From positions 4,700 to 53,854 of the forward strand of contig JBFMGS010000008.1 in the NCBI GenBank assembly GCA_040752635.1: a stretch of DNA of 49,155 bases, in the 5' to 3' direction. Every line of letters starts with the position of its first letter. Positions within the stretch are counted from its first letter, which is position 1. The notes under the pieces were generated by a model that ran no database searches, was not told the DNA's origin, and worked only from the letters and a program-made list of their open reading frames with translations. The DNA is from Bacillota bacterium (GTDB lineage: Bacteria > Bacillota > SHA-98 > UBA4971). Positions 5,805 through 46,679 of the stretch are shown piece by piece. A program made the translations under genes and the position numbers.

Positions 5805-5836
5805 TACTCTTCACCACCCCCCATGTTTTCTATCTA

Positions 5837-12678: not shown

Positions 12679-12724
12679 CCTCCGATGTCAAGCAAAAGCT
12701 CGCTCGCCACAGTCAAGGAGACGC

Positions 12725-14559: not shown

Positions 14560-14563
14560 TGCC

Positions 14564-15182: not shown

Positions 15183-15485
15183 TTACCCTTTCTCCTTCTT
15201 CATTTCTGGCAGGGTGATAGGCAGCTTGCCCTCGAGGTCGAAATGCGGCCTCGGGATCACATGCACCGATACGACTTCGCCGATCTTCGCGGCCGCCGCG
15301 GCCCCGGCGTCGCACGCAGACTTGCACGCCGCCACCTCGCCTCTCACCAGGACGGTGACGTAGCCGCCGCCGATCTTCTCCCAGCCCACGAGCCTCACGT
15401 TTGCTGCCTTGACCATAGCGTCCGCAGCCTCTATCATCGCAACGAGTCCCTTGGTCTCAATCATTCCCAGCGCTTCCATGGCCAT
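15183..15485 (-). CDS. BMC-H shell hexamer (PduA/EutM-like)
   Basis: [26 protein letters not shown]...RGEVAACK...HVIPRPH. Confidence 0.95.
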
Positions 15486-15910: not shown

Positions 15911-15982
15911 CGGAATACCTCCCGCCTCCTGCATGGCAAACCGTGGAGGATCGCCTTCACCGCCGCACCCGCATGACGGTGC

Positions 15983-16531: not shown

Positions 16532-16753
16532 GAGGACTGTCCCCCTCGCACCAGTCTAGAACCGCAAGTCCCGAACTCGTATCTGGTCTCAGAGCCGGGC
16601 ACCGTCGTCCTGGCCGTTGAACACGAGGATGATTGCCCCTTGCGCCATTTCTTACCCGCCGCACCCGGAAAGCACACCGCCAGGCCCGGCCTGCATGTAC
16701 GCAGGCTTCAAAACCCACCGTGCCCCGTGCCGCTAGCTGCTACGAGCAGTCGC

Positions 16754-17560: not shown

Positions 17561-17563
17561 CTG

Positions 17564-17842
17564 CTACGGCTTCGGCAGAATTCTGTCAACGTCCGTATGT
17601 GGCCTGGGGATCACATGCACGCTTACAAGCTCGCCAACTCTCGCAGCAGCAGCGGCGCCTGCATCAGTCGCGGCTTTCACCGCTCCGACATCGCCTCGGA
17701 CCATGACGGTCACATAACCGCCACCTATGTACTCCTTACCGATGAGCACCACGTTCGCTGCCTTGACCATCGCATCTGCGGCCTCGATAGCTCCCACAAG
17801 GCCTTTCGTCTCGACCATTCCCAGTGCGTCCTGAACCATCAA
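17564..17842 (-). CDS. BMC-H shell hexamer (EutM/PduA-like)
   Basis: [26 protein letters not shown]...[14 protein letters not shown]...HVIPRPH. Likely start is ATG 17839. Confidence 0.95.
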
Positions 17843-17960
17843 CCCCGCCCCCTAACGTTATCATCAACACCGTCATTCCCGACTGGTCGTGTCACTGCTG
17901 CCGGACTATACCCGCGCTGCCGGAGTATACCTGCTATGCTGCGCTTTATTGAGTTCTGCG

Positions 17961-31525: not shown

Positions 31526-32575
31526 TCACATACTGACGATGACTTTCATCCCCCTTCTCTCTGCCACTACGAGAAGGCCCTCCTCAAGCCTATCCAGCGG
31601 CAACACGTGGCTTATGAGGCTTCTGACGTTGATCTGGCCCCTTTCGAGAAGCCTCATCGCAAGGTTGAAATGCCCGTGGTTGAAATCATGGCTGCCCGTG
31701 AGCTCAATCTGCTTGTAGTGAATGACGTTGAGATCCACGTCAAGGCGACCCTCGGGATAAAGACCGGCGAAGATGTTTACGGTCCCACACGGGGCGACGA
31801 CGCCTAGGGCCCAGGCAACCGCTCCGGTTGAACTCGCCGCAACTATAACTTTGTCGGGGCCATTACCTCCTGTCATTTCCCGGACCCGTCTCACCGCTGT
31901 TTCATAGCCTGGGGACTCGCCGGGCTCCAGACAAACTATCCTTTCGATACCGAGTGCACGCGCAACCTCCAGCCTTCCAGCGCTGAGGTCACAGATGGCC
32001 ACCCTCGCACCTCTAACGCGAGCAAGCTGAGCGTGTAGCAGGCCGATGGGGCCTGCGCCAACTACGAGGACATCGTCCCCGACCGAAATCCCGCTTCTCT
32101 CCTGCCCATTTATGCAACACGCAAGCGGCTCTGCAAAGACGGCTTCCTCATACGACATAGAGGGCGGAATAACCCAGAGACTCGTTAGAGGCGCCTTACC
32201 ATATTCCGCGAACCCGCCGACGACGCGCGCACGGTTGTCTCTTACACAGTAATTCGGCAGCCCTCGACGGCAGAATTCGCACTGGTTGCACGAAGCCAGC
32301 CAACATGCTGCCACCCGGGTTCCCGGGCGAATTTGCGACGGCGCCGTTCCTACAACTTCCACTACCTCGCCGACCCACTCATGTCCGGGGAGAAACGGCA
32401 ACTTGGCTTCAGGTATGCGTGCTTGCCCGGTGTATAGCCGAACGTCGCTTGGACAGATCCCGCACGCAGCAACTCGTATGAGAGCCTCCCCGGGGCCCGG
32501 TTTTGGCAACGGCACGCGCTCAACGCGCAACTGGCGCGGACCGTGCAACATTGCAGCCCGCATGTGATCCTTCAT
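31526..32575 (-). CDS. Zn-dependent polyol dehydrogenase (MDR family)
   Basis: CGICPSD, GHEWVG, CNQCEFC...C and GAGPIG motifs. Confidence 0.9.
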   Translation of the reverse strand: MKDHMRAAMLHGPRQLRVERVPLPKPGPGEALIRVAACGICPSDVRLYTGQARIPEAKLPFLPGHEWVGEVVEVVGTAPSQIRPGTRVAACWLASCNQCEFCRRGLPNYCVRDNRARVVGGFAEYGKAPLTSLWVIPPSMSYEEAVFAEPLACCINGQERSGISVGDDVLVVGAGPIGLLHAQLARVRGARVAICDLSAGRLEVARALGIERIVCLEPGESPGYETAVRRVREMTGGNGPDKVIVAASSTGAVAWALGVVAPCGTVNIFAGLYPEGRLDVDLNVIHYKQIELTGSHDFNHGHFNLAMRLLERGQINVRSLISHVLPLDRLEEGLLVVAERRGMKVIVSM

Positions 32576-32865
32576 CTTGCTGTGTCCTCCTTGCCCCCGG
32601 GCCCAGTCAAAGCAGCTTGACCGCGCTACGTATGAAGGGCCTAATATCGTTTGAGGCGACCCCGAACAAGCTCAGGAGCCTCCCAACCGTATATACTATC
32701 ATATAAACGCAGGCCCTAGCTTCTAAGTCGCATGCAAGAACTTGAGGAGCGCTGTACTATTTCGCGAGACGAACAAGTCAACAGGCGGGGTAAGCACCGT
32801 TTTCGTCTATGACCTCAAGCTCCCTATCCAGTCTCGCTTCCATCCACTTTTAACCTATAAGGGAG

Positions 32866-33126
32866 TTGGCGCCCGGTTACCAGGTGGTCAGGGAGATCAT
32901 CAAACAGCGCAAGAGGCTCGGCATGACCCAAGAGGAACTGGCAAGGCGCATGGGGACTAAACAGTCAGTTGTATCTTGCCTGGAATCAGGAAAGTATACC
33001 AGTATTACATTACAGACTCTGGAGCGGATGGCAAAGGTCCTGGGTTGTGCGTTGAAGGTAAACTTGGTGCCGCTGAAAAAAGAGGGCAAAGCCAAGCAAC
33101 ACGGGGACCTTTTGGTTCCTGTATAA
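32866..33126 (+). pseudogene. 5'-truncated XRE (HigA-like antitoxin) relic
   Basis: IIKQRKRLGMTQEELARRMGTKQSVVSCLESG...TLQTLERMAKVLG. The would-be RBS abuts the TTG, and upstream TATAAGGGAGTTG reads YKEL in frame if one G is removed. Confidence 0.6.
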
Positions 33127-33196
33127 GCACAACCGGACACAGCTATCGGAGGTAGATCGTATGTTGCCGTGACGTTCTGCCCGGCGACCCTTGGCG

Positions 33197-33243
33197 ACCC
33201 CTGTTGACTGGCACACCGCGTGCTCCAACAGGGGTTTTTCTTT
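33197..33243 (+). terminator. Intrinsic terminator
   Basis: ACCCCTGTTG/CAACAGGGGT stem with an inner GCAC/GTGC helix, followed by TTTTCTTT. Confidence 0.7.
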
Positions 33244-33297
33244 ACCCTCGCACCGTCATGGAAAACATCAATGTTCTCCCCAGCCAGCTCCGCTAAG

Positions 33298-34239
33298 TTA
33301 CTCGCGCCGTCGCCCGGCCAGAAACTCCTCGACTTCAGGTCGCCTGGGCATGGCCGGTGCTGTACCCACTCTCGTCACAGAAATGGCACCGGCTGCATTG
33401 GCAAACTCAACGGCGTCAAGCAAAGGCCGCCCTTCCGCAAGAGCAACGACCAGTGCGCCGTTAAATGCATCGCCGGCGCCCGTAGTATCCACAGCCTTCA
33501 CCTCGAAGGCAGGTGCGTGATATACGCCGGTGTGGCTTACTACGAGGGCCCCGGTGGCCCCGAGAGTGATCACAACATTGCGGCATCCCCGCGCCAGCAA
33601 ATCTCTAGCCGCCTTTTCGGCGGTTCTGTCATCCACCACAGCCTGGCCGGTGATTGCAGACGCCTCTGTCTCGTTGGGAGTCAGTACGTCGACTTTGGAT
33701 AGTAAATCGTCAGGGACCGGCCTCCCGGGCGCCGGATTCAACACAATGCCCACGTTGTTTGCATGCGCGAATTTGATGGCGTACTCCACAGTATGCATCG
33801 GGATCTCCAGTTGCAGCAACACGTAGTCCGAACCCAGGATCCGATCCCTGGCCTTCTCAACATCGCTCGGCTCGAGCTCGTTGTTGGACCCGGGCGCCAC
33901 CACTATCATGTTTTCGCCCTTCTCCTCGTCAACCATTATCAAGGCGGCGCCGGTACAGACGTTGTCAACTCGCTTGACGAAGTCCACCTGTATACCCTCT
34001 TTAACCAGGTTCTCGTACGCCACATCGCCGAAGTAGTCCCTTCCCAGGGAGACTACCATGCACACTTTGGCGCCCAGCCTTGCGGCAGCGACGGCTTGGT
34101 TGGAGCCCTTCCCGCCGGGGCCCATCCGAAAAGGGCCTCCCATAACAGTCTCTCCTGCTACCGGGAGCCTCGGTGTTCTTGACATGAGGTCCATCATAAA
34201 ACTACCTACAACGGTGATCCTGGGTTCTCTATTCGCCAT
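33298..34239 (-). CDS. rbsK: Ribokinase (PfkB family)
   Basis: VVGSFMMDL, GGKGSNQAVAAARLG, LLQLEIP, NPAP, PNETE and DTTGAGDAF motifs. Start ATG 34239 with GGAGG RBS. Confidence 0.9.
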   Translation of the reverse strand: MANREPRITVVGSFMMDLMSRTPRLPVAGETVMGGPFRMGPGGKGSNQAVAAARLGAKVCMVVSLGRDYFGDVAYENLVKEGIQVDFVKRVDNVCTGAALIMVDEEKGENMIVVAPGSNNELEPSDVEKARDRILGSDYVLLQLEIPMHTVEYAIKFAHANNVGIVLNPAPGRPVPDDLLSKVDVLTPNETEASAITGQAVVDDRTAEKAARDLLARGCRNVVITLGATGALVVSHTGVYHAPAFEVKAVDTTGAGDAFNGALVVALAEGRPLLDAVEFANAAGAISVTRVGTAPAMPRRPEVEEFLAGRRRE

Positions 34240-34318
34240 GGTCCTCCCCCTGCCTCGCCAAAATCGCGTTGCCAGATGTTCCAACGTTGCCGGTGCATCG
34301 TGCACGCCTATCTCCTCA

Positions 34319-35158
34319 TCAGCCCCTCATAGCTCCAAGCGTCAGCCCTCTCACGAGATACCTCTGCAGCAACAAAGCAAGGATTACTACGGGAAGCGAC
34401 GTTAGTACAGATAGAGCGGATATCTCACCCCACATGATCTCGTGTCCACCGACCATACCTGATATGATCACGGGGAGCGTGGTCACTCTCGATCTCGTCA
34501 AGACTAGGGCGAAGAGAAACTCGTTCCAGGAGAATATGAAGCAGAAGAGGCCGGTCACGATGAGAGCGGGTACCGCAAGCGGCAGCGCGATTCTCCAGAA
34601 CACCTGCAGGCGGTTGAAACCATCAACCAGCGCCGCTCCCTCTATGTCGGCAGGAATGTCCTCAAAAAACCCCTTGATGAGCCAGACCGCAAATGGCAGG
34701 TTAAACAGGCAATAGGCAAGCACTAACGCAGGATAGGTGTCGAGCAACCCTGCATACCGCATCAGTATGAATATGGGGATTATGCCGGCTATCGGCGGCG
34801 CCATCCGAATCGAGAGGATCCAGAAGGACAGGTTGTCGCCACCGGTCCTGTACCTGGCGATGCTGTAAGCTGCCAGAGAGCCCAGGACGATCGCCAGCGC
34901 CGCGCTGGATCCCGCCACGACGAGGCTGTCCTTGATACCCTTCGCCCCGCCACGCTCAAGAGCCCTGCTGAAATTATGCCACTCTAGCTGCTTGGGTACA
35001 AACACCGGTGGCGACGTGTAGAACTCCCCGCGCTGCTTAACCGACCCCACGAACATCCAGTACACGGGGAAAAGGTTGAATAAGAGCAGAACTCCTATTG
35101 TGAAGTAAACTAACGCGGCCTGCCACGACTTGCTCGACCGGATCTCCCGCTCTTTCAT
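34319..35158 (-). CDS. CUT1 ABC permease (MalG-like)
   Basis: EAA loop EDIPADIEGAALVDG; FIFSWNEFLFA. Confidence 0.93.
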   Translation of the reverse strand: MKEREIRSSKSWQAALVYFTIGVLLLFNLFPVYWMFVGSVKQRGEFYTSPPVFVPKQLEWHNFSRALERGGAKGIKDSLVVAGSSAALAIVLGSLAAYSIARYRTGGDNLSFWILSIRMAPPIAGIIPIFILMRYAGLLDTYPALVLAYCLFNLPFAVWLIKGFFEDIPADIEGAALVDGFNRLQVFWRIALPLAVPALIVTGLFCFIFSWNEFLFALVLTRSRVTTLPVIISGMVGGHEIMWGEISALSVLTSLPVVILALLLQRYLVRGLTLGAMRG

Positions 35159-35162
35159 AGTC

Positions 35163-36077
35163 TCACGCCCTCCCCACTCTCATCATTTTAACCAGGCGCA
35201 TGCAGATCACGGTCACGATCACGAGCTGAATCACCGCCAGTGCTGTCGCGTACCCCATGCTGAAGTACCTGAAGCCGTTGATATACGTGTAAAGGCTCAC
35301 ACTTTCCGACGCCGATCCAGGGCCTCCTCCCGTGAGCAGGAAGACCAGGTCAAAGATCTTGAAGACGTCCATGACCCGGAACAGCGCCACTATGATTACG
35401 GTAGGTTTCAGGAGGGGAAGCGTCACACGCCGGAACACCTGCCAGGGGGTAGCGCCGTCAACGTTAGCTGCTTCGTAGACACGAGGGGATATCGATTGAA
35501 GCCCTGCGAGCAACACGACGGTAACAAAGGGGGTCCACTGCCACACCTCGGCGGCCAGGATCGAGAAGAGAGCCGTTCGGGTATCCGCAAGCCAGGCAAA
35601 CCCGTTGCCAAGATGAAGAGCACGAATGATGTAGTTCAGCGGGCCGAAGGATTCATGGTATATGACCCGCCACTGAAAGCCGACAACAACCGGAGCAATC
35701 GTGATCGGAATAAGAAACAGCGATGTAACGAGCTTTTTCAGCCTAAATTCTCGGTTCAGCAGAAGCGCCGTCGCAAGACCGAGAACTAGCTGCAGCCCCA
35801 CTCCTCCCACCAGAAGGATAAGAGTGTTCTTCATTGCGTTCCAGAACCGGCCGTCCGCTAAGATATTAGCGTAGTTACCGAACCAAGCGAATTGCGGCGG
35901 CGCCATGGAAACGAGTTCCCACGACGTGAAGCTGGTGATGAAGATGAATAGTAGCGGTCCGATGGCGAGAGCGAGCAGGATACCTACTACAGGTGCAATA
36001 AACAACACGGGTAGCTTCTTGTCGGTCCACAGGCTGAGATCTCGGGCCCTGGCAGGCGCGATACCTCCGGGGTTCAT
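35163..36077 (-). CDS. CUT1 ABC permease (MalF-like)
   Basis: WQWTPF...LAGLQSI...YEAANVDGA motif. Confidence 0.93.
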   Translation of the reverse strand: MNPGGIAPARARDLSLWTDKKLPVLFIAPVVGILLALAIGPLLFIFITSFTSWELVSMAPPQFAWFGNYANILADGRFWNAMKNTLILLVGGVGLQLVLGLATALLLNREFRLKKLVTSLFLIPITIAPVVVGFQWRVIYHESFGPLNYIIRALHLGNGFAWLADTRTALFSILAAEVWQWTPFVTVVLLAGLQSISPRVYEAANVDGATPWQVFRRVTLPLLKPTVIIVALFRVMDVFKIFDLVFLLTGGGPGSASESVSLYTYINGFRYFSMGYATALAVIQLVIVTVICMRLVKMMRVGRA

Positions 36078-36168
36078 TGCTCGGCATCTCCTTTCTGCCG
36101 GTCACTCTGGTGCACTTCGAAGCCATGGGTGGGGCCACCCGGGGACGAGCGGCCCCACCGCTTTGTCG

Positions 36169-37635
36169 TTACTTCCATATGCCCAGTGACTTCCACGTCT
36201 CGACAGCCTTCAAGTATATCTCCTTCTGCTTAGCCGCCCCGAGCTTCTTGGTGATCTGCTCCCATTCCTTCGCTGCAGCATCCAGTGCCGCCTTGGGTGT
36301 CATTTCACCGCTCAGGGCCCGGTTGATATAGAGGTCCAGAACGTCCTGATAGTTTCCCGCCCCGGGGATGTTGATCTCGGGATACGCATTCTCCAGGTTG
36401 ACACCAACAGTCTCCAGGTATTCCTTAGCAGCTTCTTCGCTGCCGAGAAGGCCTGCGAAGGCTTTCGGGCTGGTGAAGTGAGACTTGCGGTATGGGTCAA
36501 GGCCGGTCTCTGACGAGGAGACGTCATGAAGGCTGGTCTCGACGGAAAGGTACCTGGCTACCCAGTAGGCCGCCTCAGGATGCTTCGCTGTCTTCGGCAC
36601 CGCGAGAACCCGCCCTACCGGCATCGGCGCAGACCGGACAATCTTGTCTCCTGCTTTCGTGCCCGGAATCGCGGCAATGCCCGATCGGTTGACGATCTTC
36701 GAAATCCTGGGATCTTGGGCTTTCTTCTGGATATCGGACCACTGGACGACCATCGCTACCTTGCCTTCGAGGTAGGCGTTTTTCAACTCCTCATAGCCAT
36801 ACGCCATCACGTCGGGGGGAGAATACTTCAGGCTCGCCTTAAACAGCTCGAGAGCCTTTACTCCCTTATCAGAATTTATGAGCGGTTTCATGTCCTCATC
36901 AAAGTACACGCCGCCCAGGCTTCCGAACCTGGCAAGCCACCAAGCATATGAAAAGCCACGCGCCGCCAACTCAGCCGAGCCGTAGAAATCCTCCTTCAGC
37001 GTCTCGCCCGCGAGTTTCTCACCCTTCTTGCGGGTAAAGAACTTGGCTATATCCAGAAACTCGTCCCAGGTGTCCGGCGCTTTCAACTCGCGTCCGAACT
37101 GCTTCTTAAAGTTCGCCTTTTCGACCTCATTGCTGAACAAGTCTTTGCGATAATACAGGTTCAAGACGTCCCCGTCATATGGGAGTGCGTATAGTTTACC
37201 GCCATACCTAATGTTCAGCTCGCGTACGCCGGTTGACACGTCGTCAAGCTTAGGATCGTATTTCTTTGCGTAGTCGTCGAGGGGCATGAGGTAACCGAGC
37301 CCAGCAAACTCCCCGAGATATGCCGGGTAGAAAATCACCAAATCGTAGGCTCCGGTCTGAGCCACGAATTCCGTCTTCAGCTTCTCGTAGACGCTGGTGA
37401 AGGGTACGCCTACAACCTGATCAATAATGATCCCGGACTCCTCTTTTATCTTGTCTTTGTACCACTCAAACGGCTTGAGGTTATGGCCTGCATCGCCGAA
37501 GGCCACGATCTTGACTCCCTCAAAGGGTTTGCGGGACTGACCTGTGACAATTCCGCCACCAATCACAAGTGAAATAGCAAGCATCATCGCGGTAACAAGC
37601 ACAAGCCTGCGGGACATCTTCACCACTGTACTCAC
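36169..37635 (-). CDS. CUT1 ABC solute-binding protein
   Basis: Signal peptide without lipobox; LYALPYDGD...YYRKDLF...APDTWDE motif; AGGAGG RBS. A 9-bp stem-loop follows at 36128-36159. Confidence 0.92.
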   Translation of the reverse strand: MSTVVKMSRRLVLVTAMMLAISLVIGGGIVTGQSRKPFEGVKIVAFGDAGHNLKPFEWYKDKIKEESGIIIDQVVGVPFTSVYEKLKTEFVAQTGAYDLVIFYPAYLGEFAGLGYLMPLDDYAKKYDPKLDDVSTGVRELNIRYGGKLYALPYDGDVLNLYYRKDLFSNEVEKANFKKQFGRELKAPDTWDEFLDIAKFFTRKKGEKLAGETLKEDFYGSAELAARGFSYAWWLARFGSLGGVYFDEDMKPLINSDKGVKALELFKASLKYSPPDVMAYGYEELKNAYLEGKVAMVVQWSDIQKKAQDPRISKIVNRSGIAAIPGTKAGDKIVRSAPMPVGRVLAVPKTAKHPEAAYWVARYLSVETSLHDVSSSETGLDPYRKSHFTSPKAFAGLLGSEEAAKEYLETVGVNLENAYPEINIPGAGNYQDVLDLYINRALSGEMTPKAALDAAAKEWEQITKKLGAAKQKEIYLKAVETWKSLGIWK

Positions 37636-37813
37636 CCTCCTAAATGAGAATTTGGATCAGCCGTTCCCATTTGAAACAGACACCTGGTACTCGTACCTTC
37701 GTGCTTGCGTCTATTCCTCCCACCTCCTTATCTGGACCGCCTTGCAGTAGAGATCCACTCCACAGGACAGTACTACGGACAATGGCCACTCACATCACCA
37801 CAGGTACCCCTGC

Positions 37814-38917
37814 CTAATGGAATAGATTGACACCAGTATCCTTATGAAAGAGGTGCACGTGTCGCGGGTTGAACTGGAGGAACACGTTACCCCTGGCTCT
37901 AACATGCGTATCTGGCGATGTTTCAACCCGGATGATACTCTGGCCGACCCGAACCGTAACTACAGCAGTATCGCCCAGACTTTCGAAAAGCATCACCTCG
38001 CCCGGGATTGAATTAGCAGACATCTTTTCCGTTTGGAGGTCGATATACATCGGCCGTATCCCCAGGATCCCCTTTGATCCCGCCAGGTTCGATACCGCCA
38101 CACTAAAAGTCTTGTCCTGCAGTCTCAATGTGAAGCCGTCTCCGATGAGCAAAACGTGCTCCCCTTCGACTTGGACCGCCACGTCCAGAAAGTTCATCGG
38201 CGGCTCACCCACGAAATCTGCTACAAACAAGTTTCTCGGGCGGTTGAACACTTCCATCGGGGTTCCAAGTTGCTGCAACACGCCCAGGTTCATCACAGCT
38301 ATCCTGTCAGCCATGGCCATGGCTTCAATTTGGTCGTGCGTGACGAATATTATCGTGAGGCCCTTCAGGCGATGAAGGCGCTTCAGTTCGCTCCTCAACT
38401 GGCTTCGCTGTTTGGCGTCCAGGTGTGACAGGGGTTCATCCATCAGGTACACGCGGGCAGGCCGCACCATAGCGCGAGCAAAGGATATCCGCTGCTGTTG
38501 GCCTCCGCTCAGGTTCCTGGGAAGGCGGTCCAGGATGCCACCTATATCCAGCATCTCAGCGATTTCTTTGACTTGCCTGTCTACCTCTTGCTGCCTCACC
38601 CCTCTCACCCGCAAGGGGAAAGCGATGTTCTCATAAGCTGTCAGATGCGGGTACAAGGCATAAGCTTCGAACGCCATGGCGATATCTCTCTGTCGCGGCT
38701 CCAGAGCGTTGACCCGACGCCCGTCGATCAAGATGGACCCGAGAGTTATCTTTTCAAGTCCTGCTATCATTCTTAGAGTGGAACTTTTCCCGCATCCTGA
38801 CGGGCCGAGGAGCGCCAGGAATTCGCCTTCCTTGCACTCGAGATTCAGGTCCTTTACTGCTTCGACCTCGCCGTATTTCTTCCAGACGTTCTGCAAGACG
38901 ACAGTTCCCATTAGCAC
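37814..38917 (-). CDS. CUT1 ABC ATPase (MalK/MsmX-like)
   Basis: GPSGCGKSS, LSGGQQQR, DEPLSHLD and VTHDQ motifs; C-terminal OB/TOBE domain. Confidence 0.95.
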   Translation of the reverse strand: MLMGTVVLQNVWKKYGEVEAVKDLNLECKEGEFLALLGPSGCGKSSTLRMIAGLEKITLGSILIDGRRVNALEPRQRDIAMAFEAYALYPHLTAYENIAFPLRVRGVRQQEVDRQVKEIAEMLDIGGILDRLPRNLSGGQQQRISFARAMVRPARVYLMDEPLSHLDAKQRSQLRSELKRLHRLKGLTIIFVTHDQIEAMAMADRIAVMNLGVLQQLGTPMEVFNRPRNLFVADFVGEPPMNFLDVAVQVEGEHVLLIGDGFTLRLQDKTFSVAVSNLAGSKGILGIRPMYIDLQTEKMSANSIPGEVMLFESLGDTAVVTVRVGQSIIRVETSPDTHVRARGNVFLQFNPRHVHLFHKDTGVNLFH

Positions 38918-38983
38918 CTCTCCCTTGTGGCAACCGCTCCAGTTGTACTTGCGTTAAAGCCGAGACCTCGTCACAACCGAAAC

Positions 38984-40078
38984 CTATACGATCCGCTTGC
39001 CGGATGCGGCGTCGAAGATGCGGATCTTGTCCTGGGCAAGCCGGAGCCACACTTCGTCCCCGATCTCTGCACGGAAGTCCTCGCTTACCCTGATTCTCAC
39101 CAGGCTGGCCCCCAATCTTACAGTGAGCACGCTAACTGCGCCCAGTGGCTCGAGAACATAGACCTCTGCCTTCAATGAGTCCGGTGCAGTCGGGCGGAAA
39201 TCCACCGCGATCTGTGTAGGTCGAATCCCAATTCGAACGTCTCTCGGGGTGGCCAGGTTCTGTAAGAGCGGGACAGCATGAGGTGGTACTCGGAGAGAAA
39301 AGGTCTCTGATTCGAAAGAAAGGGAACCGTCAAGCTGTGTAACTCGGCAACTGATCAAATTCATAGGCGGCTCGCCTATGAGGTCCGCAACGAAGTCATT
39401 AGCAGGCTGGTCGTAAATCTCGGCCGGGCTTCCCACCTGTTGGATCGAACCTTTGTCGAGCACAATCACCCGGTCCGCCAGAGCCAGCGCTTCCCTGAAG
39501 TCGTGAGTGACGTAGATCATGGACTTCCCGAGTTCGCCGTGAAGCCTTTTCAGCTCCCCTCTCATCTCGTGTCGCAGCTTTGCGTCCAGGTGAGACAACG
39601 GTTCGTCCATGAGGTATACGTCTGCTTCTTTAGCGAGCGCTCTACCAAAAGATACCCTCTGCTGTTGCCCGCCGCTCAAATGAGCAGGCTTTCGGTCCAA
39701 CAACTGCTCTATCTGCAGTAACTTTGCCACATCTCGCACGCGCGTCTCCACGTCTTCAGAAGGCATACCTACAGCCCTTAGCGGCGAAGCGATGTTCTCA
39801 AAGGCGGATAAGTGTGGGTAAAGCGCGTAATTCTCGAATACCATAGCAACGCGTCTTTGTCGGGGTTCCAGGCCATTAACCTCTCGGCCGTCTATGAGGA
39901 TATGGCCGGATGTGACTCTCTCGAGACCTGCGATCATCTTTAAGGTAGAGGTCTTACCTGCACCAGACGGGCCGAGCAACACCAGGAGCTCCCCGTCTCT
40001 ACATTCGAATGAGACGTCTTTGACCGCCTCAAGCTCCCCGTATTTCTTGCAAACGTTCTGGAGAACGACCTCAGCCAT
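38984..40078 (-). CDS. CUT1 ABC ATPase (second paralog)
   Basis: GPSGAGKTS, LSGGQQQR, DEPLSHLD and VTHD motifs. Start ATG 40078 (MAEVVLQNV). Confidence 0.95.
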   Translation of the reverse strand: MAEVVLQNVCKKYGELEAVKDVSFECRDGELLVLLGPSGAGKTSTLKMIAGLERVTSGHILIDGREVNGLEPRQRRVAMVFENYALYPHLSAFENIASPLRAVGMPSEDVETRVRDVAKLLQIEQLLDRKPAHLSGGQQQRVSFGRALAKEADVYLMDEPLSHLDAKLRHEMRGELKRLHGELGKSMIYVTHDFREALALADRVIVLDKGSIQQVGSPAEIYDQPANDFVADLIGEPPMNLISCRVTQLDGSLSFESETFSLRVPPHAVPLLQNLATPRDVRIGIRPTQIAVDFRPTAPDSLKAEVYVLEPLGAVSVLTVRLGASLVRIRVSEDFRAEIGDEVWLRLAQDKIRIFDAASGKRIV

Positions 40079-40122
40079 CGTCCCAACTCCTATCCAGGCT
40101 GGTTTTCGCGCTACGACCCTTA

Positions 40123-40647
40123 TCACAATGAGATTTTGAATTTGACACCCAACTCTTTCGTAAAGTCATGGAGGTCTATGTCCTCTTCGACAGTCCCTTT
40201 ACGTAGGACAAGAACGAAGTTCATGCTCTCTGCCAGCGGAAACGGAGCCCAGTGCCACACGCCGGCGTCCAGGTTCACCGCAACCGAGCCGTCTAGAATG
40301 AACGCAGCAATCTGCGAAGGATCCGGTAGTTGATCGGGGTTCGCTGGGTCAGATGCAGGAGCGAGAGCGAAGATACAGGCCTTGCCCTCTAAGGGAATGA
40401 AAGTTTCGTCGCTTTTCGAGTGTCTTTCCATGGTGTTGAATTCGAAGGGCCGAAATCTGGTTGCGAGAAAGCCAAGCTCCGCATGTCCGTTGCTGACGTT
40501 GAGGTTTACAACCTGGTCCCAATAATCCAGTACTCCACTGACCGATACCGATGGTTTGGTATTTGGCAGCTCAATGAGCGTGCCAAACGGTTTGAAGTTG
40601 TCCCGGGTGGGACGGAGAACCCTCACGCTAACTTCTCTTACAGTCAC
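40123..40647 (-). CDS. Ureidoglycolate lyase (AllA)-like cupin
   Basis: FKPFG, MERH..SDETFIPL, AF...G..AVNL..GVWH motifs. Confidence 0.75.
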   Translation of the reverse strand: MTVREVSVRVLRPTRDNFKPFGTLIELPNTKPSVSVSGVLDYWDQVVNLNVSNGHAELGFLATRFRPFEFNTMERHSKSDETFIPLEGKACIFALAPASDPANPDQLPDPSQIAAFILDGSVAVNLDAGVWHWAPFPLAESMNFVLVLRKGTVEEDIDLHDFTKELGVKFKISL

Positions 40648-40830
40648 GTTCGCGCGCCTCCAATCTTATGCTTGATTTATCGACCCTTTCTCAGCGCTTG
40701 AGCACTGAAACGGGTGACGCCTTCAGGCAGAGAAGAATGCGTGGCGAACTCACATACTCTGGAGCTGGCTATGATATTTCGCTACACTACGACCTGGTCT
40801 GGATGAACATCCACTCTCCTATGTCAGCAT

Positions 40831-40844
40831 TGCAAACGTGAGCA
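40831..40844. promoter_or_regulatory. Possible LacI-family operator before the cupin/ABC genes
   Basis: TGCAAACGTGAGCA, an imperfect palindrome with central CG, immediately 3' of the lacI-like stop. Confidence 0.4.
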
Positions 40845-41855
40845 TTAGCGTAATTCTCTACATGACTGCCTCACTCTTAACTTCGTTGGTAAAACAACCT
40901 TACGGACTGCCGTCTGATCGCGGTTCTCTATGCGCGAAATCAATAGTTCGGTTGCTATTCGCCCCATGTCCGACATCGGGCGGTCTACCACTGTCAGCGG
41001 CGGAGTAAGGTAAGCTGCCAGCAAGAAATCATCAAACCCAACGAGAGACACCTGGTCTGGAATTCGAACCCCCATGTCACGAAGAGCTTCAAAGATACCC
41101 ATTGTCATCAGGTTGTTGCCGCCGAAGATGGCTGTCGGCGGGGTGGGCAGCGACATCAGGTGCCTCGCCAGTTCATAACCGGATCTCGTTCGGAAGTCGC
41201 CTTCCTTCACGTAATCCGATACCACCTCCACCCCTCTTGCGCGCATGGCTTGCAGATACCCTCTCAAGCGGCCACCACCGGGCGTCATGTTCTCAGGTCC
41301 GTGAATGATCGCTATTCTCGTGTGGCCTAGTTGCAGTAGATAATCAGTGGCCTGAAACGCCCCTCCCTCGTTGTCGATTATCACCGAGTCATACTGGAAC
41401 CCCTCGATGTGGCGGTCTATGAACACGATCGGAAGCCGACTCTCTGATCCTTTCAAGCCCCAGCGTAGCGTTGCCCCGGACTCATCGACTAGAATCATCA
41501 ATAAGCCGTCAACCCTCTGTTGTCGAAGATTCCGGACAACCGCCTTCTCTGTCCTGACATCTTCGTTGGTGTTCCCGAGAATTATGTTGTAACCATACTC
41601 AACACACACCGATTCAACTCCCTTTAACACCTCAGGGAAGAACGGGTTACCGATGTCCGGGATAACAAAGCCTATCGTTTTCGTCTGGCGCATCCTCAGA
41701 CTTTTGGCTATTGTGTCGGGTACATATCCCTGATCCTCAATGACTCGCAGTACCTTCTTGTAGGTCTCCTGCGCCACATTGCCGGTCTTGTTGATCACCC
41801 TGGACACGGTCGCTGTGGAAACTCCTGCAATTCGCGCAATGTCCCGCTGGTTCAA
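40845..41855 (-). CDS. LacI-family transcriptional regulator
   Basis: DIARIAGVSTATVSRVIN, IGFVIPDIGNPFF and SLVGFDD motifs. Start TTG 41855 with GGAGG RBS. Confidence 0.95.
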   Translation of the reverse strand: MNQRDIARIAGVSTATVSRVINKTGNVAQETYKKVLRVIEDQGYVPDTIAKSLRMRQTKTIGFVIPDIGNPFFPEVLKGVESVCVEYGYNIILGNTNEDVRTEKAVVRNLRQQRVDGLLMILVDESGATLRWGLKGSESRLPIVFIDRHIEGFQYDSVIIDNEGGAFQATDYLLQLGHTRIAIIHGPENMTPGGGRLRGYLQAMRARGVEVVSDYVKEGDFRTRSGYELARHLMSLPTPPTAIFGGNNLMTMGIFEALRDMGVRIPDQVSLVGFDDFLLAAYLTPPLTVVDRPMSDMGRIATELLISRIENRDQTAVRKVVLPTKLRVRQSCRELR

Positions 41856-41875
41856 AGGTTGTTTCCTCCATTGCC

Positions 41876-41889
41876 TGTATACGCATACA
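41876..41889. promoter_or_regulatory. LacI/cre-type operator O2
   Basis: TGTATACGCATACA; its reverse complement is 13/14 identical to O1. Confidence 0.65.
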
Positions 41890-42130
41890 ATGTTTTCAGG
41901 TTGAGACACCATCACCCCGGCTACGCGTCTAAGTAGCCAAGCGCCGCTGCACGCACGCCGCATAAGCAAGAGGACGGGAAAGAGAGTCGTGTTTCCTCGC
42001 TGCTAGAGACGGCTATGCCTGCTAAACGTGCCGGTTCGTCGCTAGCCGCATGTCGTAATCATACGGCCCGACGTCATCGTTACTATTTGCAACCACCCAC
42101 GTCTCCCGGATCTGCACCACTCGAAATTCG

Positions 42131-42172
42131 TGTATGCGTTTACATTATAAACCCAGGTTTTCGCACCGTCAA
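42131..42172 (-). promoter_or_regulatory. Strong sigmaA promoter overlapped by LacI/cre-type operator O1
   Basis: Minus strand TTGACG (42172-42167), 17-nt spacer, TATAAT (42149-42144), directly followed by TGTAAACGCATACA (42144-42131). Confidence 0.8.
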
Positions 42173-42873
42173 GTACTAAGTGGTAACCATTCCAGCAAAT
42201 ATATCGTAGACCTGATAACGGTAGCCGGGTGGAGCAGCGGCCGCCATAGCAGAACGTATGTGACTTCGCAAGGGTCCCGCGCTACTCATAGAGTAGCGAG
42301 GTCGAACGCGGTAGTGAACCCAATGCTCGCTAGTTGCGAGTGTAATCGTATGCATTCTGGCCTGGAGATCCGTTTGGAGGCCTGTTGTTGCTCCTGCTGG
42401 GCCGTCTTCAATGATTAGAGCCGGGTCCAGGATATGGAGCTATCGGCAGCAATAGTAGAAGTGCCATCTGTAGGCCCAAGTCCTCTATGGAATTTGGGTG
42501 CGGGTCGTTGCCGGTATCTTATCTAAGAAAAGAATTGTGGAAAAGAAGGAAAACGCAACTGGACGCAGAATAACGCATGTGAACGATAATAAATGATCAC
42601 TCAGCGTGGACTCCATACACGGAGGCAGTTCTATTCGGTTGAGAGATATCCGGGAAGCAAGCGCCAATACATGAAGCGGGGACCGGTTCGCCTTTAGATA
42701 CTCGTCTTTGTGGAGGGGAGGTGATGGCCCGCGGAGATGTGCGCCCTGCTCGGGCAAGGGAACTCTCATGGCAGAGTTGCCCCAGGGTAAGCAGTAGGGA
42801 TGGTTCCGGAGTTCTGGAGAGTGGTGTTTCCGGTACGGGTAGACCTTAAGAAAAAGAAAGAGGAGGGCTCAAG

Positions 42874-44253
42874 ATGAGACGGCGCTGGTATGTTTCTGCT
42901 GGTATGATAGTCCTCGTTGCGGTGCTAGTTGCCCTTTCCCTAAATGGGGCGGCCTTCGCCAGGAGGCAGATCACCATCGCCCATTACATGCTGGACGTCT
43001 ACAACAAACAGCTAGATACGGTTATAGCTCGTTATCAGAAGGCTCACCCTGATGTGGACGTCAAGTACATAACCATTCCCAGCACGGAGTATCACACCTG
43101 GCACTTGACCCAGCTTGCAGGCGGCGATCCGCCTGACATCATGCAGAACAACTGGGGCTCCGAGGACTTTCGCAAGGGTCTTATAGTGTCCCTGGACGAG
43201 TTCATTAACAAAACCAACCCATACACGGGCAAGACATGGAAAGACATGTTTGAGCCGGGTTCGCTGGATGGCTTTGTGAGCACTGACCCCATCACAAGGA
43301 AACTCATCGGCATCCCCGTGAACTGGTCATCCTTTGCGTTCTTCTACAACAAGGACGTGTTCAAGAAGCTGGGCCTTGAGCCGCCGAAGACCTGGGTACA
43401 GTGGTTCGAGATGGCCGAGAAGCTGAAAAGCGCGGGCTATGTTCCGCAAGCCGCCACGTTCACGGGCGGGCCGGAGGTCTGGAGCGTCGGATACATAGAG
43501 GGCACAATGTGGCAGAGCTGGGTGCCGAAGCTCGACGTGCTGCAGCCCAACGGACAGGTTGACTTGAACGAGCTTGTGAGGGCGATCCAGCTTGATCTGA
43601 TCAAGGCTGATGATCCGCAGTTCCAGGCGCCGTATGAGTTCTTGAAGAAATGGTCTCAGTACTGGCAGGCGGGCGCAGTGGGCGCGGCGGATCACGGTCG
43701 TCTCTGGACGACGGGAAAAGCAGCTTTGTTTATGGCCGGTAGCTGGATGCTCCAGTCAATCGAGGAGAACAAGGAGCGCGGCTTCGATTACGGGATCTTC
43801 GTGTTCCCCGATATTACGCGGGAGACCTCGCCGTATGCAACAGGCTCGACCTGCAGGCCGGGGGAGGCGGGCATAACCTGGACCATCCCGACAGCCACTG
43901 TGAAGAGGGGCAATTTAGACCTGGCTATTGACTTCCTTCAGTTCATGACAGCGCCGGAGAACGCCACCGTCCTGGAGAAGGCGTACAATATGCCCCCGAT
44001 CATCAAGGGTGTTGAACCGGCCAACCCAAAGGTCAAGGCGTTCGTAGCGCCCGAAGCCAACCCGAAGATCCAGCTTTCGCTCACGGGTCCGTTCGGCGAC
44101 ATGAAGTTCAAGAACCTGCAGCTTCTTCTCTCGGGCGGTCTCACCATGGATAAGTTCGTGCAGACTTTGGGGCGCGAGATGAAGAGAGCGGCGGAGCAGC
44201 TCGCCCGCGAGAACAACTGGACGTCTCAGAATAACTGGGGTGGGGGTAAGTAA
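42874..44253 (+). CDS. CUT1 ABC solute-binding protein
   Basis: Signal peptide ending AFA with no Cys; GIPVNWSSFAFFYNKDVFKKLGLEPPKTW motif; GAGGAGG RBS. Confidence 0.92.
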   Translation: MRRRWYVSAGMIVLVAVLVALSLNGAAFARRQITIAHYMLDVYNKQLDTVIARYQKAHPDVDVKYITIPSTEYHTWHLTQLAGGDPPDIMQNNWGSEDFRKGLIVSLDEFINKTNPYTGKTWKDMFEPGSLDGFVSTDPITRKLIGIPVNWSSFAFFYNKDVFKKLGLEPPKTWVQWFEMAEKLKSAGYVPQAATFTGGPEVWSVGYIEGTMWQSWVPKLDVLQPNGQVDLNELVRAIQLDLIKADDPQFQAPYEFLKKWSQYWQAGAVGAADHGRLWTTGKAALFMAGSWMLQSIEENKERGFDYGIFVFPDITRETSPYATGSTCRPGEAGITWTIPTATVKRGNLDLAIDFLQFMTAPENATVLEKAYNMPPIIKGVEPANPKVKAFVAPEANPKIQLSLTGPFGDMKFKNLQLLLSGGLTMDKFVQTLGREMKRAAEQLARENNWTSQNNWGGGK

Positions 44254-44545
44254 CTTCTAGCCAACTTCCAGCCAGATGATGTATTAGGGCGCCTTCTAAG
44301 TCAGGGCTGGAAGCGCTTGGCACCTTGGAGTTGCCGGTGATTGCGCTAGGGGCGTTCCGAATCTGGATAGTACCGAGTGCAACACCGGCAACCCCAGCAG
44401 AGTCATATCCCGAAAGTGGCGTGGATTTCTGACTGCCTAGTTAGCGCTGGGCAATGCGGTTGGTCGTACCCTTGGGTGCTGCGGGCCAGCCTGGCAAGGT
44501 GGGAACAGGGTACAGCGGGAGTAACTGTAAGCGGGGGGAGCGGCG

Positions 44546-45460
44546 GTGAAGCGCAGGACAGTTTGGCAGGAAATCGGGCGAAAGAAGTTTGTCTATTTCT
44601 TTCTTGCACCCACTTTCGTGCTGCTGCTGTTGTTTGAATACTATCCTGCCTTCTCCGCCGTTTACCACTCCTTTTTCGACTGGGACGGGTTTTACGTAAA
44701 CCGCTTCGTAGGACTTGCAAACTACAAGGAGATTCTCTTCGACGATTGGGTGCTTCGCATCTCCGTTGTCAACATGCTAAAGTTGATGACCTTCGGGATG
44801 GGCGTGGGGCTGGTCATGCCGATCCTCGTCGCCGAGGTCCTCTTTAGCCTGAGGAGTCTGCGGTGGAAATACATATACAGGGTTCTATTGGTGCTCCCTG
44901 CCCTGATCCCCGGCATCGTGGGAATGCTCTTGTGGGGGTATATCTACGAGCCGACATATGGGCTGGCAAATCAGCTTCTCCGAGCGGTAGGCCTCGGGCG
45001 CCTAGCCAGGGAGTGGCTGGGAGACCCCAGGGTCGCCCTCTACGCCCTGATGTTTATGGGGTTCCCGTGGGTAGGCGGTATAGGCGTGTTGATTTACCTG
45101 GCCGGGCTGCAGAATATCCCGCAAGAGGTTTTTGACTGCTGTAGGCTGGACGGAGCACAGGGACTCGCCCGTTTCTTTAAGGTCGACCTTCCCCTCATCA
45201 TGGGCCAGGTGAAGCTCAACGTGATAATGGGGTTCATCGGCGGGATTCAAGGCTTTGGAGTGCAGTTGATCCTGACGAAAGGCGGCCCGGGGTTTGCTAC
45301 GACGGTTCCGGGGCTTGTTCTGTACGACAATGCTTTCAAATACGGGAGGATGGGCTACGCTTCGGCCATTGGGGTCTGCATGTTTGTGATCATAATGGGG
45401 CTGACGTATGCCAACATGAAGTACTTGAAGTCGGGCATAGAGTATCAAGCTAGAAGTTGA
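44546..45460 (+). CDS. CUT1 ABC permease (MalF-like)
   Basis: YLAGLQNIPQEVFDCCRLDGA EAA loop; GRMGYASAIG. Confidence 0.93.
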   Translation: MKRRTVWQEIGRKKFVYFFLAPTFVLLLLFEYYPAFSAVYHSFFDWDGFYVNRFVGLANYKEILFDDWVLRISVVNMLKLMTFGMGVGLVMPILVAEVLFSLRSLRWKYIYRVLLVLPALIPGIVGMLLWGYIYEPTYGLANQLLRAVGLGRLAREWLGDPRVALYALMFMGFPWVGGIGVLIYLAGLQNIPQEVFDCCRLDGAQGLARFFKVDLPLIMGQVKLNVIMGFIGGIQGFGVQLILTKGGPGFATTVPGLVLYDNAFKYGRMGYASAIGVCMFVIIMGLTYANMKYLKSGIEYQARS

Positions 45461-45600
45461 TCTTTATTCCCCTATTCCCTGACTTTGAGAAGGGGTTGCC
45501 AGTGATTGCGCGGCGCGTTTGAAATTTGGATAGTAAAGTGGTACGGATTTGCGGCCACCAGCTTGGGTCCTGCAACTACGCTTTTGTGGGGTGGGCAATA

Positions 45601-46434
45601 GTGAGTGCCAACCGGGGAAACTCCTGGGTAGAACTATCCAAGCACCTTTTGCTGTGGATCATCGTAGTTCTTACGTTTTACCCGTTCGCCTTCATGTTCA
45701 TCACTTCTCTCAAGACACAAAGCCAGTTTGAGGTGTACTTCTGGCAGGTGGTGCGCCCGTTTCATTGGGAGAACTACGCCTTCGCATGGGCCAAGGTTGC
45801 GCCCTACATCGCGAATAGCATTATCATATGCGTTGCGGCTACGACCCTGATTCTCGTGGTCTCGTCTATGTCCGCATACGTCTTCGCACGGTTCGCGTTT
45901 CCTTTCAAGGAGGCTCTCTTTTACGCGATCTTGGGGATCGTGATGATTCCGGGCACTCTCACGCTGATCACCCGGTTCGTTTTGGTGAAACGCCTGGGCC
46001 TGCTCGATACCAGATGGGTGCTGATCCTGCCGTACGTAGCCGGAGGCCAGGTCTTCTCCATACTCTTTTTGCGCACTTTCTTCGCGTCGATCCCGGAGGA
46101 GCTCTTCGAGGCCGCCAGGCTTGACGGTGCGTCGGAGCTTGCGAGCTGCCTCAGGATCGCCATCCCTCTTTCCATGCCCATCCTAAGTACTGTGGCGATT
46201 CTGAATATCCTGGCACAATGGAATGACCTGATCTGGCCTCTGATAACCATCACCAGCGAACACTTGAAGACCATTCCGGTGGGCATTGCGTATTTTCGTA
46301 CGAGCATCTGGCGGCCGGAAACCGGACAGGTGATGGCCGCTTATATGATTACCTCGCTTCCCCTGGTAGTGCTCTTTTTCGCCAGCATGCGGACGTTTAT
46401 CGAGGGGCTTACGAGCGGGGCGATCAAAGCATAG
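45601..46434 (+). CDS. CUT1 ABC permease (MalG-like)
   Basis: FFASIPEELFEAARLDGA and WNDLIWPL motifs. Start more likely GTG 45601 than TTG 45526. Confidence 0.92.
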   Translation: MSANRGNSWVELSKHLLLWIIVVLTFYPFAFMFITSLKTQSQFEVYFWQVVRPFHWENYAFAWAKVAPYIANSIIICVAATTLILVVSSMSAYVFARFAFPFKEALFYAILGIVMIPGTLTLITRFVLVKRLGLLDTRWVLILPYVAGGQVFSILFLRTFFASIPEELFEAARLDGASELASCLRIAIPLSMPILSTVAILNILAQWNDLIWPLITITSEHLKTIPVGIAYFRTSIWRPETGQVMAAYMITSLPLVVLFFASMRTFIEGLTSGAIKA

Positions 46435-46679
46435 CAGAGGAGTGCGTACGTTTGAGGCCGTGGTCTGTCTTCGGCGGCCCTGCGGCGTAATGACGCGATG
46501 AGGCGTGAAGGGCGCAAAAGGCGTCGGAAAGGCTTAAGGTTCCGCGGCGCGTCAAGCTGGATCACGTAGACATGAGGCGGAATTGTACATGCAAATCTGT
46601 AGGTGCGAAGCAGCGCCAACTCCTTGAGGTTCGAGCCTGGTCATGCGTAGAAGTGCGTGCTGAACAGGAGGTTTTGCAA

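Follow-up and report, generated by a model that had tools for sequence, protein, structure and literature searches.

The stretch of DNA analysed here (hereafter the window) comprises 49,155 nucleotides of contig JBFMGS010000008.1 from a Bacillota bacterium. On its minus strand, from 33298 to ~41858, lie eight co-directional genes that encode a LacI-family regulator, a cupin, a CUT1-type ABC importer with two ATPases, and a kinase of the ribokinase family. Our best reading, which we advance tentatively, is that this cassette is a LacI-controlled operon for the uptake and 5-phosphorylation of a free pentose, most likely 2-deoxy-D-ribose and possibly D-ribose too. This reading draws on the gene content, the conservation of the cassette, its linkage to deoxyribose-phosphate aldolase (DERA), a clade-specific Asn-to-Met change in the kinase, and operators unique in the genome, from which we infer the substrate. 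What would be new here is a deoxyribose/ribose operon that is made up of non-homologous parts, includes an uncharacterised cupin clade and is attached to a sugar-phosphate-utilising (SPU) microcompartment.

The cassette and its linkage to DERA

The eight genes were delineated from a listing of open reading frames (ORFs) and from profile searches.

40845-41858, minus strand: LacI-family repressor, with LacI helix-turn-helix (HTH) and Peripla_BP domains
40123-40647, minus strand: PF04115 cupin, 174 residues, GTG start after GGAGG; 72.4 bits (cut-off 23), E 4e-20
38984-40078, minus strand: MalK/UgpC-like ABC ATPase 1, with ABC_tran and OB_MalK/TOBE domains
37814-38917, minus strand: MalK/UgpC-like ABC ATPase 2, with ABC_tran and OB_MalK/TOBE domains
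36169-37635, minus strand: CUT1 solute-binding protein, SBP_bac_1, 488 residues
35163-36077, minus strand: ABC permease 1 (MalF/UgpA/GlcT-like), BPD_transp_1
34319-35158, minus strand: ABC permease 2 (MalG/UgpE/GlcU-like), BPD_transp_1
33298-34239, minus strand: PfkB ribokinase-family kinase, predicted (deoxy)ribokinase; TIGR02152, 365.2 bits (cut-off 299.65)

Internal starts were chosen for LacI, ATPase 1 and the kinase, based on the lengths of orthologues and on ribosome-binding sites. The lacI ORF extends to 41969, and a TTG start at ~41858, after GGAGG, yields a protein of 337 residues; its orthologues are 335–338 residues long and 65–85% identical. The ORF of ATPase 1 extends to 40126, with residue 17 as the probable ATG start, and that of the kinase to 34305, with Met23 as the probable start. 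An earlier reading of this DNA, made from the letters alone, had listed the same eight genes and remarked that the cassette holds no nucleoside hydrolase, nucleoside phosphorylase or other allantoin-pathway gene. All eight were recovered, and profile searches of the cassette likewise revealed no gene of these kinds.

The arrangement is not due to chance, as the same eight genes recur in the same order at other loci (L001/L002, L003, L017 with L018, L038 and, in fragments, L040). At least five other assemblies carry the cassette, including a JGI 850-kb contig (L001/L002), a metagenome-assembled genome (MAG) of the Bacillota (L003) and one of the Clostridia (L038). Cupin identity between cassettes is 60–75%, and the full cassette is seen wherever enough DNA is available. 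At L040 (contig C201 of genome G165, 811-5606), the ATPases, binding protein and permeases were called as several short pieces, a sign of frameshifts in the assembly or else of an operon in decay.

The cupin has ~16 close relatives among 5.8 billion proteins and belongs to a single 50%-identity cluster among 911 clusters of its family. Scanning the genome collection with an alignment of the cupin clade gave nine loci. The clade is present in 4 of the 401 sampled genomes of the phylum, this genome counted, and in one of nine sampled relatives of the same family; the sample of 401 held no cassette beyond those already found. A feature search for the cupin returned only generic 'ureidoglycolate lyase family' clusters.

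In four of the five long contexts available, the cassette lies beside DERA, in three different arrangements. Within the window, the DERA gene is part of an SPU-type microcompartment operon, and its DERA domain scores 302 bits on TIGR00126 (cut-off 117).

10289-19700, minus strand: SPU-type microcompartment operon, with aldehyde dehydrogenase (AldDH), PduL, shell proteins, PduS-like protein, RpiB and a DERA fusion

This operon is co-directional with the cassette, with its nearest organelle gene ~14 kb and the DERA gene ~21 kb from the kinase gene. In L038 the association is tightest: 87 bp past the kinase gene, on the same strand, begins the series EutN-RpiB-EutN-EutN-DeoC-AldDH-BMC-PduL-PduS-BMC. 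The cassette of L003 starts ~1.2 kb downstream of a microcompartment DeoC, and in L001 a stand-alone DERA (TIGR00126, 295 bits) converges on the kinase gene from 1.1 kb away. At a Bathyarchaeial locus, a related module of cupin, binding protein and permeases is likewise next to DERA and to genes for transketolase, transaldolase, Rpe and phosphoribosyl pyrophosphate (PRPP) synthase. Three congeners of the L003 genome (G056, G098, G207) have the microcompartment and, in the 15–20 kb downstream of its DeoC, no cassette. These contexts mark the cassette as a mobile add-on, acquired or relocated on several occasions and each time coming to lie beside DERA. Since DERA is present in only one or two copies per genome in these organisms, such repeated adjacency is far from chance; as the loci are related to one another, we state this linkage without a formal statistic.

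The content of the assembly bears on the same point. At 87% completeness, it has one DERA (its sole DeoC) and one RbsK-grade kinase, that of the cassette, and searches of it turned up no phosphopentomutase DeoB, no RbsD and no IU_nuc_hydro nucleoside hydrolase. Hence the cassette kinase is the only visible source of deoxyribose 5-phosphate. Supply of SPU microcompartments via DeoB has been proposed (PMC11585597), and a term search of three papers on these organelles (PMC4207490, PMC8217296, PMC11585597) found no mention of ribokinase, of a kinase-importer feeder or of this cupin. With an importer-kinase cassette fused to SPU operons and no phosphopentomutase found, free deoxyribose would become a concrete, testable natural substrate.

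Two further observations concern nucleoside genes and DERA itself. On contig C51 of G000 (1768-5935; L009, L036, L037), a second PfkB kinase, at 160 bits below the cut-off of the ribokinase model, adjoins PNP_UDP_1 genes in what may be a nucleoside salvage cluster; the assembly contains five PNP_UDP_1 genes and no detected DeoB. In family f1, DERA is present in 18 of 18 genomes and microcompartment shell genes in nine of them. The DERA frame measures 224–303 residues in the shell-less genomes and mostly 537–614 in the shell-bearing ones (G406, at 287, being the exception), consistent with an N-terminal fusion of DERA tied to encapsulation.

Expression of the cassette appears to be governed from a single region upstream of lacI, where a predicted promoter and two palindromic sites of 14 bp were identified.

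42144-42172, minus strand: sigma-70-type promoter TTGACG-17-TATAAT upstream of lacI, 11 of 12 consensus matches
42131-42144: putative LacI-type palindromic operator O1, TGTAAACGCATACA on the minus strand, abutting the -10 hexamer
41876-41889: putative second operator O2, TGTATGCGTATACA on the minus strand, just upstream of the lacI ribosome-binding site

By consensus match, this is the sole near-consensus minus-strand promoter predicted between 32400 and 42400. The candidate operator sequence at the cassette is TGTATGCGTTTACA, and the 2.58-Mb assembly holds just two instances of the pattern TGTAWRCGYWTACA, each of them upstream of lacI. Versions with one mismatch are found upstream of lacI in L001, L003 and L018; elsewhere in the assembly there are two one-mismatch matches, both on other contigs. 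O1 and O2, with 41890-42130 between them, are ~255 bp apart, centre to centre, a spacing that may allow DNA looping, and ~270 nt separate the promoter and O1 from the lacI start. Given the single promoter and the operators upstream of lacI, the cassette looks like one autoregulated operon starting with lacI, and the LacI protein probably represses it as a whole. The genome-wide pattern search placed no LacI operator near the microcompartment genes and thus gives no evidence for LacI control of the organelle. An Rfam scan of 32500-42900 gave no match at E ≤ 0.1.

The kinase and the cupin

The kinase exceeds the cut-off of the ribokinase equivalog TIGR02152 and retains the catalytic apparatus of the family. 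Alignment to E. coli RbsK (1GQT) shows that the equivalents of D16, G41-G42-K43, N46, E143 and D255 are kept, as are the motifs GGKGSNQ, the Glu of LQLE, and GAGDAF with its GAGD anion hole and catalytic Asp. Met37, in contrast, aligns with Asn14 of RbsK, a residue that contacts ribose. Every cassette kinase has Met at this position, within GSFMMD or GSYMTD. All of them fall in a clade of 23 tips (support 0.905) in which 19 members have Met, 3 Val and none Asn, compared with Asn in 91 of the 120 nearest homologues. Over the whole protein, only two columns separate this clade from its Asn-type neighbours, namely the Asn14 equivalent and position 55 (Leu to Met).

The counterpart of Asn14 in Salmonella DeoK, Met10, was reportedly named by Tourneux et al. 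in 2000 as the determinant of deoxyribose versus ribose. In laboratory evolution of E. coli that carried an rbsR insertion and RbsK N20Y, 15 of 16 colonies selected on 2-deoxyribose had N14D or N14S as well (PMC6452873). The cassette kinase thus shares with DeoK both a non-Asn residue, Met, at this position and genomic linkage to deoC, and it is plausibly a deoxyribokinase. One Val-type member of the clade, P0189 (L039, 9184-15336), sits in a different context, among a CUT2 importer, M20 peptidases, a GATase1-like protein, a xylose-isomerase-like protein, an FGGY kinase, a second PfkB kinase and a SIS protein.

The cupin is the only PF04115 gene in the assembly. Against the NCBIfam equivalog and subfamily models of AllA, the Ni-dependent C-N lyase that releases urea (PMC3793230), it scores 35–65 bits (best 65.3–65.4) and reaches none of the cut-offs (160–315). 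Identity to solved AllA proteins is ~20%. An AlphaFold2 model (predicted local distance difference test, pLDDT, 92) matches AllA structures best, with TM-scores of 0.72–0.80 (2BDR, 0.80). The next match is the DUF4867 protein SqvB (9gyy, 0.59), and the cupin-fold epimerases RmlC and QdtA are weak matches (0.36–0.47). In sequence, the cupin scores 21.2 bits on the DUF4867 profile (PF16161), below the Pfam gathering threshold of 28.7.

Within the cupin clade, E74, R75, H76 and H132 are invariant, and E81 is present in 15 of 16 members. E74, R75, H76, W131, H132, R149 and D156 are shared with E. coli AllA. The two differ in that the Gln of AllA is Glu81 in the clade, that the R, Y and H of AllA at clade positions 42–44 are replaced, and that the same is true of its Y-H-R-N stretch before the W-H motif. 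We infer a His/Glu metal site by analogy, because AllA is Ni-dependent (PMC3793230) and SqvB has a 2His-2Glu site (PMC11968277). No fused form of the cupin was detected among longer proteins at E ≤ 1e-8, and in the one relative of 484 residues (P0027), the first 318 residues match no Pfam domain.

More distant relatives of the cupin place it in a wider range of settings. Genes for those with 30–46% identity are immediate neighbours of CUT1 or CUT2 sugar importers, and the order is often LacI-cupin-importer. Relatives with 43–46% identity, from Bathyarchaeia, Aerophobetes and another archaeon, are accompanied by orthologues of the binding protein (42–53% identical) and of the permeases. In two archaeal MAGs and one Aerophobetes MAG (L015, L020, continued in L068, and L021), an aldehyde:ferredoxin oxidoreductase adjoins this module, accompanied by a zinc-dependent alcohol dehydrogenase (Zn-ADH) in L020 and L021 and by an SDR-type dehydrogenase in L015. 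These loci may encode a non-phosphorylative, ferredoxin-linked route for the same sugar, or dispose of acetaldehyde after DERA. At 30–33% identity (L026, L027), the order is LacI-cupin-CUT2 binding protein-permease-ATPase, with a FucI-like isomerase, an FGGY kinase and a xylose-isomerase-fold protein nearby. The downstream enzymes thus vary (kinases, dehydrogenases, FucI-like isomerases, aldehyde oxidoreductases), and a gene handling a released nitrogen compound was never seen near the relatives examined. The constant partner of the cupin is a sugar importer and not a particular downstream enzyme, as would be expected if the cupin is a helper that, like RbsD and DeoM, readies the sugar on arrival.

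By this analogy, the cupin would be a cytoplasmic converter of sugar rings or anomers. There is precedent for the idea. Adjacent to deoK, known loci carry deoM, whose annotation is deoxyribose mutarotase (PMC3899980), and DUF4867 proteins, with a 2His-2Glu metal site and a wide distribution in sugar clusters, have been proposed to be mutarotases or ring isomerases (PMC11968277). Opening of a hemiacetal ring is, formally, an AllA-type elimination in which an alkoxide leaves instead of urea, and the same argument has been made for DUF4867 (PMC11968277). We consider it a real prospect, at somewhat less than even odds, that the cassette cupin will prove to be the first demonstrated cupin-fold pentose pyranase or mutarotase. 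A role like that of EutQ, the cupin-fold acetate kinase of microcompartments, was rejected, as the cupin follows importers in loci that have no microcompartment.

In the proposed pathway, the CUT1 importer, with a heterodimeric MalK-like ATPase, would bring the sugar in. Pentoses in solution are mostly pyranoses, and the AllA-fold metal cupin would turn the delivered ring form or anomer into the furanose used by the kinase, in parallel with RbsD in rbsDACBKR and DeoM in deoQKPX. The RbsK-family kinase, with Met for Asn14, would then make deoxyribose 5-phosphate, which DERA in the adjacent SPU microcompartment would convert to acetaldehyde and glyceraldehyde 3-phosphate.

The substrate and the role of the cupin

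Several points weigh against a deoxyribose operon with a ring- or anomer-converting cupin. Human ribokinase also has Met at the Asn14 position, and Met there is not proof of a preference for deoxyribose. The nearest solved binding proteins bind maltose, trehalose and sorbitol, although they are too distant to inform on the ligand, and CUT1 importers with a binding protein of ~490 residues more often carry disaccharides, polyols and compounds of ~250–350 Da than a free pentose. No kinase was seen near the distant cupin modules (L015, L020, L021) within the sequence available. The cassette is also rare (4/401), and most genomes with an SPU microcompartment are without it; thus it is not how that organelle is fed in general. 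Simple displacement of RbsD by the cupin was not upheld, as two RbsD/FucU homologues are encoded elsewhere in the L003 genome and one in the Bathyarchaeial genome. In the case of DUF4867, the one direct mutarotase test, of SftX with sulfoquinovose and sulfofructose, was negative, the rates being no higher with the protein, with non-paramagnetic metals only (PMC11968277). Finally, RbsK and DeoK each accept both ribose and deoxyribose (PMC13432705), and the prediction for the cassette kinase is therefore a shift toward deoxyribose rather than exclusivity.

One competitor, which we regard as unlikely but worth serious consideration, is a plain D-ribose operon, in which a CUT1 importer stands in for RbsABC, the cupin for RbsD, and the kinase and regulator are equivalents of RbsK and RbsR. 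Ribose 5-phosphate would then go to the pentose-phosphate pathway or to the microcompartment RpiB, and the link to DERA would reflect general pentose/nucleoside metabolism only. The kinase score (365 versus 299.65 bits), its being the sole such kinase in the assembly, RbsR as the best named match of the regulator and the lack of a detected RbsD in the assembly all fit this model, as do the RpiB present in every SPU locus and the position of the Bathyarchaeial relative among transketolase, transaldolase, Rpe and PRPP synthase genes. Yet loss of Asn14 throughout the clade is hard to explain in a dedicated ribokinase, the neighbour in L001 is DERA alone with no RpiB seen, and ribose 5-phosphate gives no aldehyde, hence no reason for repeated fusion to an aldehyde-processing organelle. 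Less probable again is that the substrate is another pentose, a pentulose or a polyol, from which the cupin, acting as an aldose-ketose isomerase or an epimerase (like the cupin-fold D-lyxose/L-ribose isomerases or RmlC-type enzymes), would provide D-ribose for the kinase. In support, RmlC and QdtA are among the weaker structural matches of the cupin, 4rya (a sorbitol binder) and 5iai are among the solved structures nearest to the binding protein, and Zn-ADH genes are found both with the distant modules and downstream of the cassette in the window. However, the epimerase matches are weak (TM-score 0.36–0.47), the cassettes of L001, L003, L017 and L038 have no dehydrogenase of their own, in the window an opposite-strand gene stands between the cassette and the ADH genes, and both the DERA linkage and the replacement of Asn14 are left unexplained.

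The sequence-only reading had drawn a link from the kinase via (d)R5P to the microcompartment, and this link is backed by conserved synteny (window, L003, L038, L001) and by the altered sugar site. Its suggestion of a deoxyribokinase is plausible, with Met at the Asn14 equivalent, a clade-discriminating column, in every cassette kinase. The same reading had the importer take up an N-linked (deoxy)ribosyl compound, with the cupin cutting the C-N bond and the kinase phosphorylating the freed sugar. We judge this model, in which the cut would fall at C1' of, for example, a ring-opened or damaged nucleoside or a ribosyl-ureide, to be improbable. In its favour, AllA, the nearest characterised relative, is itself a C-N lyase, dependent on Ni and releasing urea (PMC3793230). 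A large CUT1 binding protein would suit a compound the size of a nucleoside, and neither the cassette nor the assembly has a detectable nucleoside hydrolase. Beyond family resemblance, though, nothing indicates an N-linked or ring-opened nucleoside as substrate, and the wider contexts fit it less well: the genes around relatives of the cupin are for importers of two families, FGGY kinases, FucI-like isomerases and dehydrogenases, a setting that involves no C-N bond, and they include no C-N-cleaving partner and no gene for use of the released nitrogen compound. Cleavage by the cupin is thus unsupported. On chemical grounds, the carbon bearing N in an N-glycoside has a ring ether and no free hydroxyl, and AllA-type elimination is not directly transferable to it; in addition, R, Y and H (42–44) and the Y-H-R-N stretch of AllA are replaced in the cupin clade, with Glu in place of Gln81. 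The corresponding enzyme, a metal-dependent lyase acting on an N-(deoxy)ribosyl ureide or amide (such as a ring-opened or oxidised nucleoside from decaying DNA) and freeing deoxyribose for the kinase and microcompartment, would be the first of its fold to act on a pentose conjugate; we give it only a slim chance. A free pentose with the cupin as ring or anomer helper needs fewer assumptions than an N-linked substrate.

A further reading makes the cupin an ordinary ureidoglycolate lyase located in a sugar operon by accident, and is very improbable; a plain lyase was a case also named with the sequence-only reading. The PF04115 match (72 bits) and AllA as best structural match (TM-score 0.80) speak for it. 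The cupin fails every AllA equivalog cut-off (35–65 bits versus 160–315), is only ~20% identical to solved AllA proteins, and holds a position inside a sugar cassette that is strictly conserved across phyla. In addition, no ureidoglycine aminohydrolase (TIGR03214) was found in the 87%-complete assembly. A search of the assembly for allantoicase also gave no match, with the caveat that its control matched none of 14 control genomes.

The cassette provides a defined, conserved setting for an unstudied branch of 'ureidoglycolate lyases' that databases mislabel. It also ties this branch to the question raised by DUF4867, namely whether these proteins are isomerases of sugar rings or anomers. Should the cupin prove to be a pentose pyranase or mutarotase, a function would be at hand for the wider set of PF04115 and DUF4867 proteins of sugar clusters.

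Importer, flanking genes and known systems

The importer has the components of the CUT1 type: an SBP_bac_1 binding protein, two BPD_transp_1 permeases and MalK-type ATPases with an OB/TOBE domain. ATPases 1 and 2 are 50% identical, and both have a canonical Walker A, signature, Walker B and H-loop. Across loci, each is 59–79% identical to its like paralogue and 48–52% identical to the other, and the archaeal locus L015, with a cupin of 46% identity, likewise has two ATPase genes. Kept in all cassettes and in L015, the pair is thus an old, retained feature, and its retention suggests, most simply, a heterodimeric ATPase. The binding protein has an N-terminal anchor or signal with no lipobox Cys. 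Its solved relatives are distant: 5iai (2e-21), which was reportedly solved with ribitol, and 1eu8, 3k01 and 4rya. An AlphaFold2 model of the binding protein, from an alignment of eight sequences, had a mean pLDDT of 56 and was discarded for inference of fold or pocket.

Upstream of the cassette and divergent from it is a second CUT1 importer (42874-46434, plus strand), with a binding protein and two permeases and no ATPase gene. Service of one cassette ATPase to this importer was rejected as the main reason for the pair, which is kept in loci without that neighbour. The importer is followed by a secreted protein of 712 residues whose sole assigned domain is Big_5 (the two together spanning 42874-48710, plus strand). 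On the other side, the cassette is bounded at its 3' end by a small gene on the opposite strand.

32866-33126, plus strand: small XRE-type HTH gene, 86 residues

This gene stands alone between the kinase gene and two Zn-ADH genes on the minus strand, beyond which, all on the minus strand, are an FGGY pentulokinase-like gene, a CUT2 importer, three SorC-type regulators and the SPU operon.

The features of the cassette can be compared with those of known systems. CUT1 importers such as MalEFGK2, UgpBAEC and the archaeal GlcSTUV likewise combine an SBP_bac_1 protein, two MalF/G-type permeases and a MalK-type ATPase with a TOBE/OB regulatory domain. MalK is a homodimer, whereas the cassette has two diverged paralogues (50%) that stay together in Bacteria and at the archaeal locus alike, which suggests a heterodimer. 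Conservation of two MalK-type ATPases side by side is unusual among CUT1 importers and merits structural work. As for the organelle, the cassette lies beside or is fused to SPU loci that are typical (PMC4207490, PMC8217296, PMC11585597), with DERA, RpiB, AldDH, PduL, PduS-like protein and three BMC-P shell proteins. DeoB, through which supply has been proposed (PMC11585597), was not found in this assembly.

Two cupin families are relevant. With the (S)-ureidoglycolate urea-lyases AllA/DAL3 (EC 4.3.2.3, PF04115; 1xsq, 1xsr, 1yqc, 2bdr), the cassette cupin has in common the fold and a core of E-R-H, W-H, R149 and D156. It differs in its low identity (~20%), in lacking an allantoin-pathway context, and in being always inside a sugar importer operon. 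The DUF4867 (PF16161) proteins SftX and SqvB of sulfoglycolysis clusters (9gyy, 9gyz; PMC11968277) form a sister cupin family with His/Glu metal ligands. They too occur in sugar clusters, with FucI-like isomerases and sugar kinases and with no pathway step missing, and are proposed ring or anomer isomerases. The cassette cupin remains below the threshold of that family (21 versus 28.7 bits; TM-score 0.59), and its partners are instead an ABC importer, an RbsK-like kinase and DERA.

Among sugar operons, E. coli rbsDACBKR likewise begins with the helper gene and continues with an ABC importer, a kinase and a LacI-family repressor, the latter two homologous to those of the cassette (365 and 274 bits). 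The cassette departs from it in having a CUT1 and not a CUT2 importer, two ATPase genes in place of one fused RbsA, no RbsD, and a kinase in which Asn14 is replaced; its regulator is below the RbsR cut-off (274 versus 531 bits) and is encoded first. The logic of the cassette is closest to that of deoQ-deoK-deoP-deoX (deoM) and deoC of Salmonella and pathogenic E. coli, where a repressor, a transporter, a ribokinase-family kinase with a non-Asn residue at the RbsK Asn14 position, a sugar-form helper and DERA as consumer are similarly combined. Of these parts, only the kinase is homologous. In the cassette, a CUT1 ABC importer with two ATPases takes the place of a permease of the major facilitator superfamily, a LacI-type regulator that of a DeoR-type one, and an AllA-fold cupin that of a mutarotase of the aldose-1-epimerase family, while DERA lies, in several cases, inside a microcompartment.

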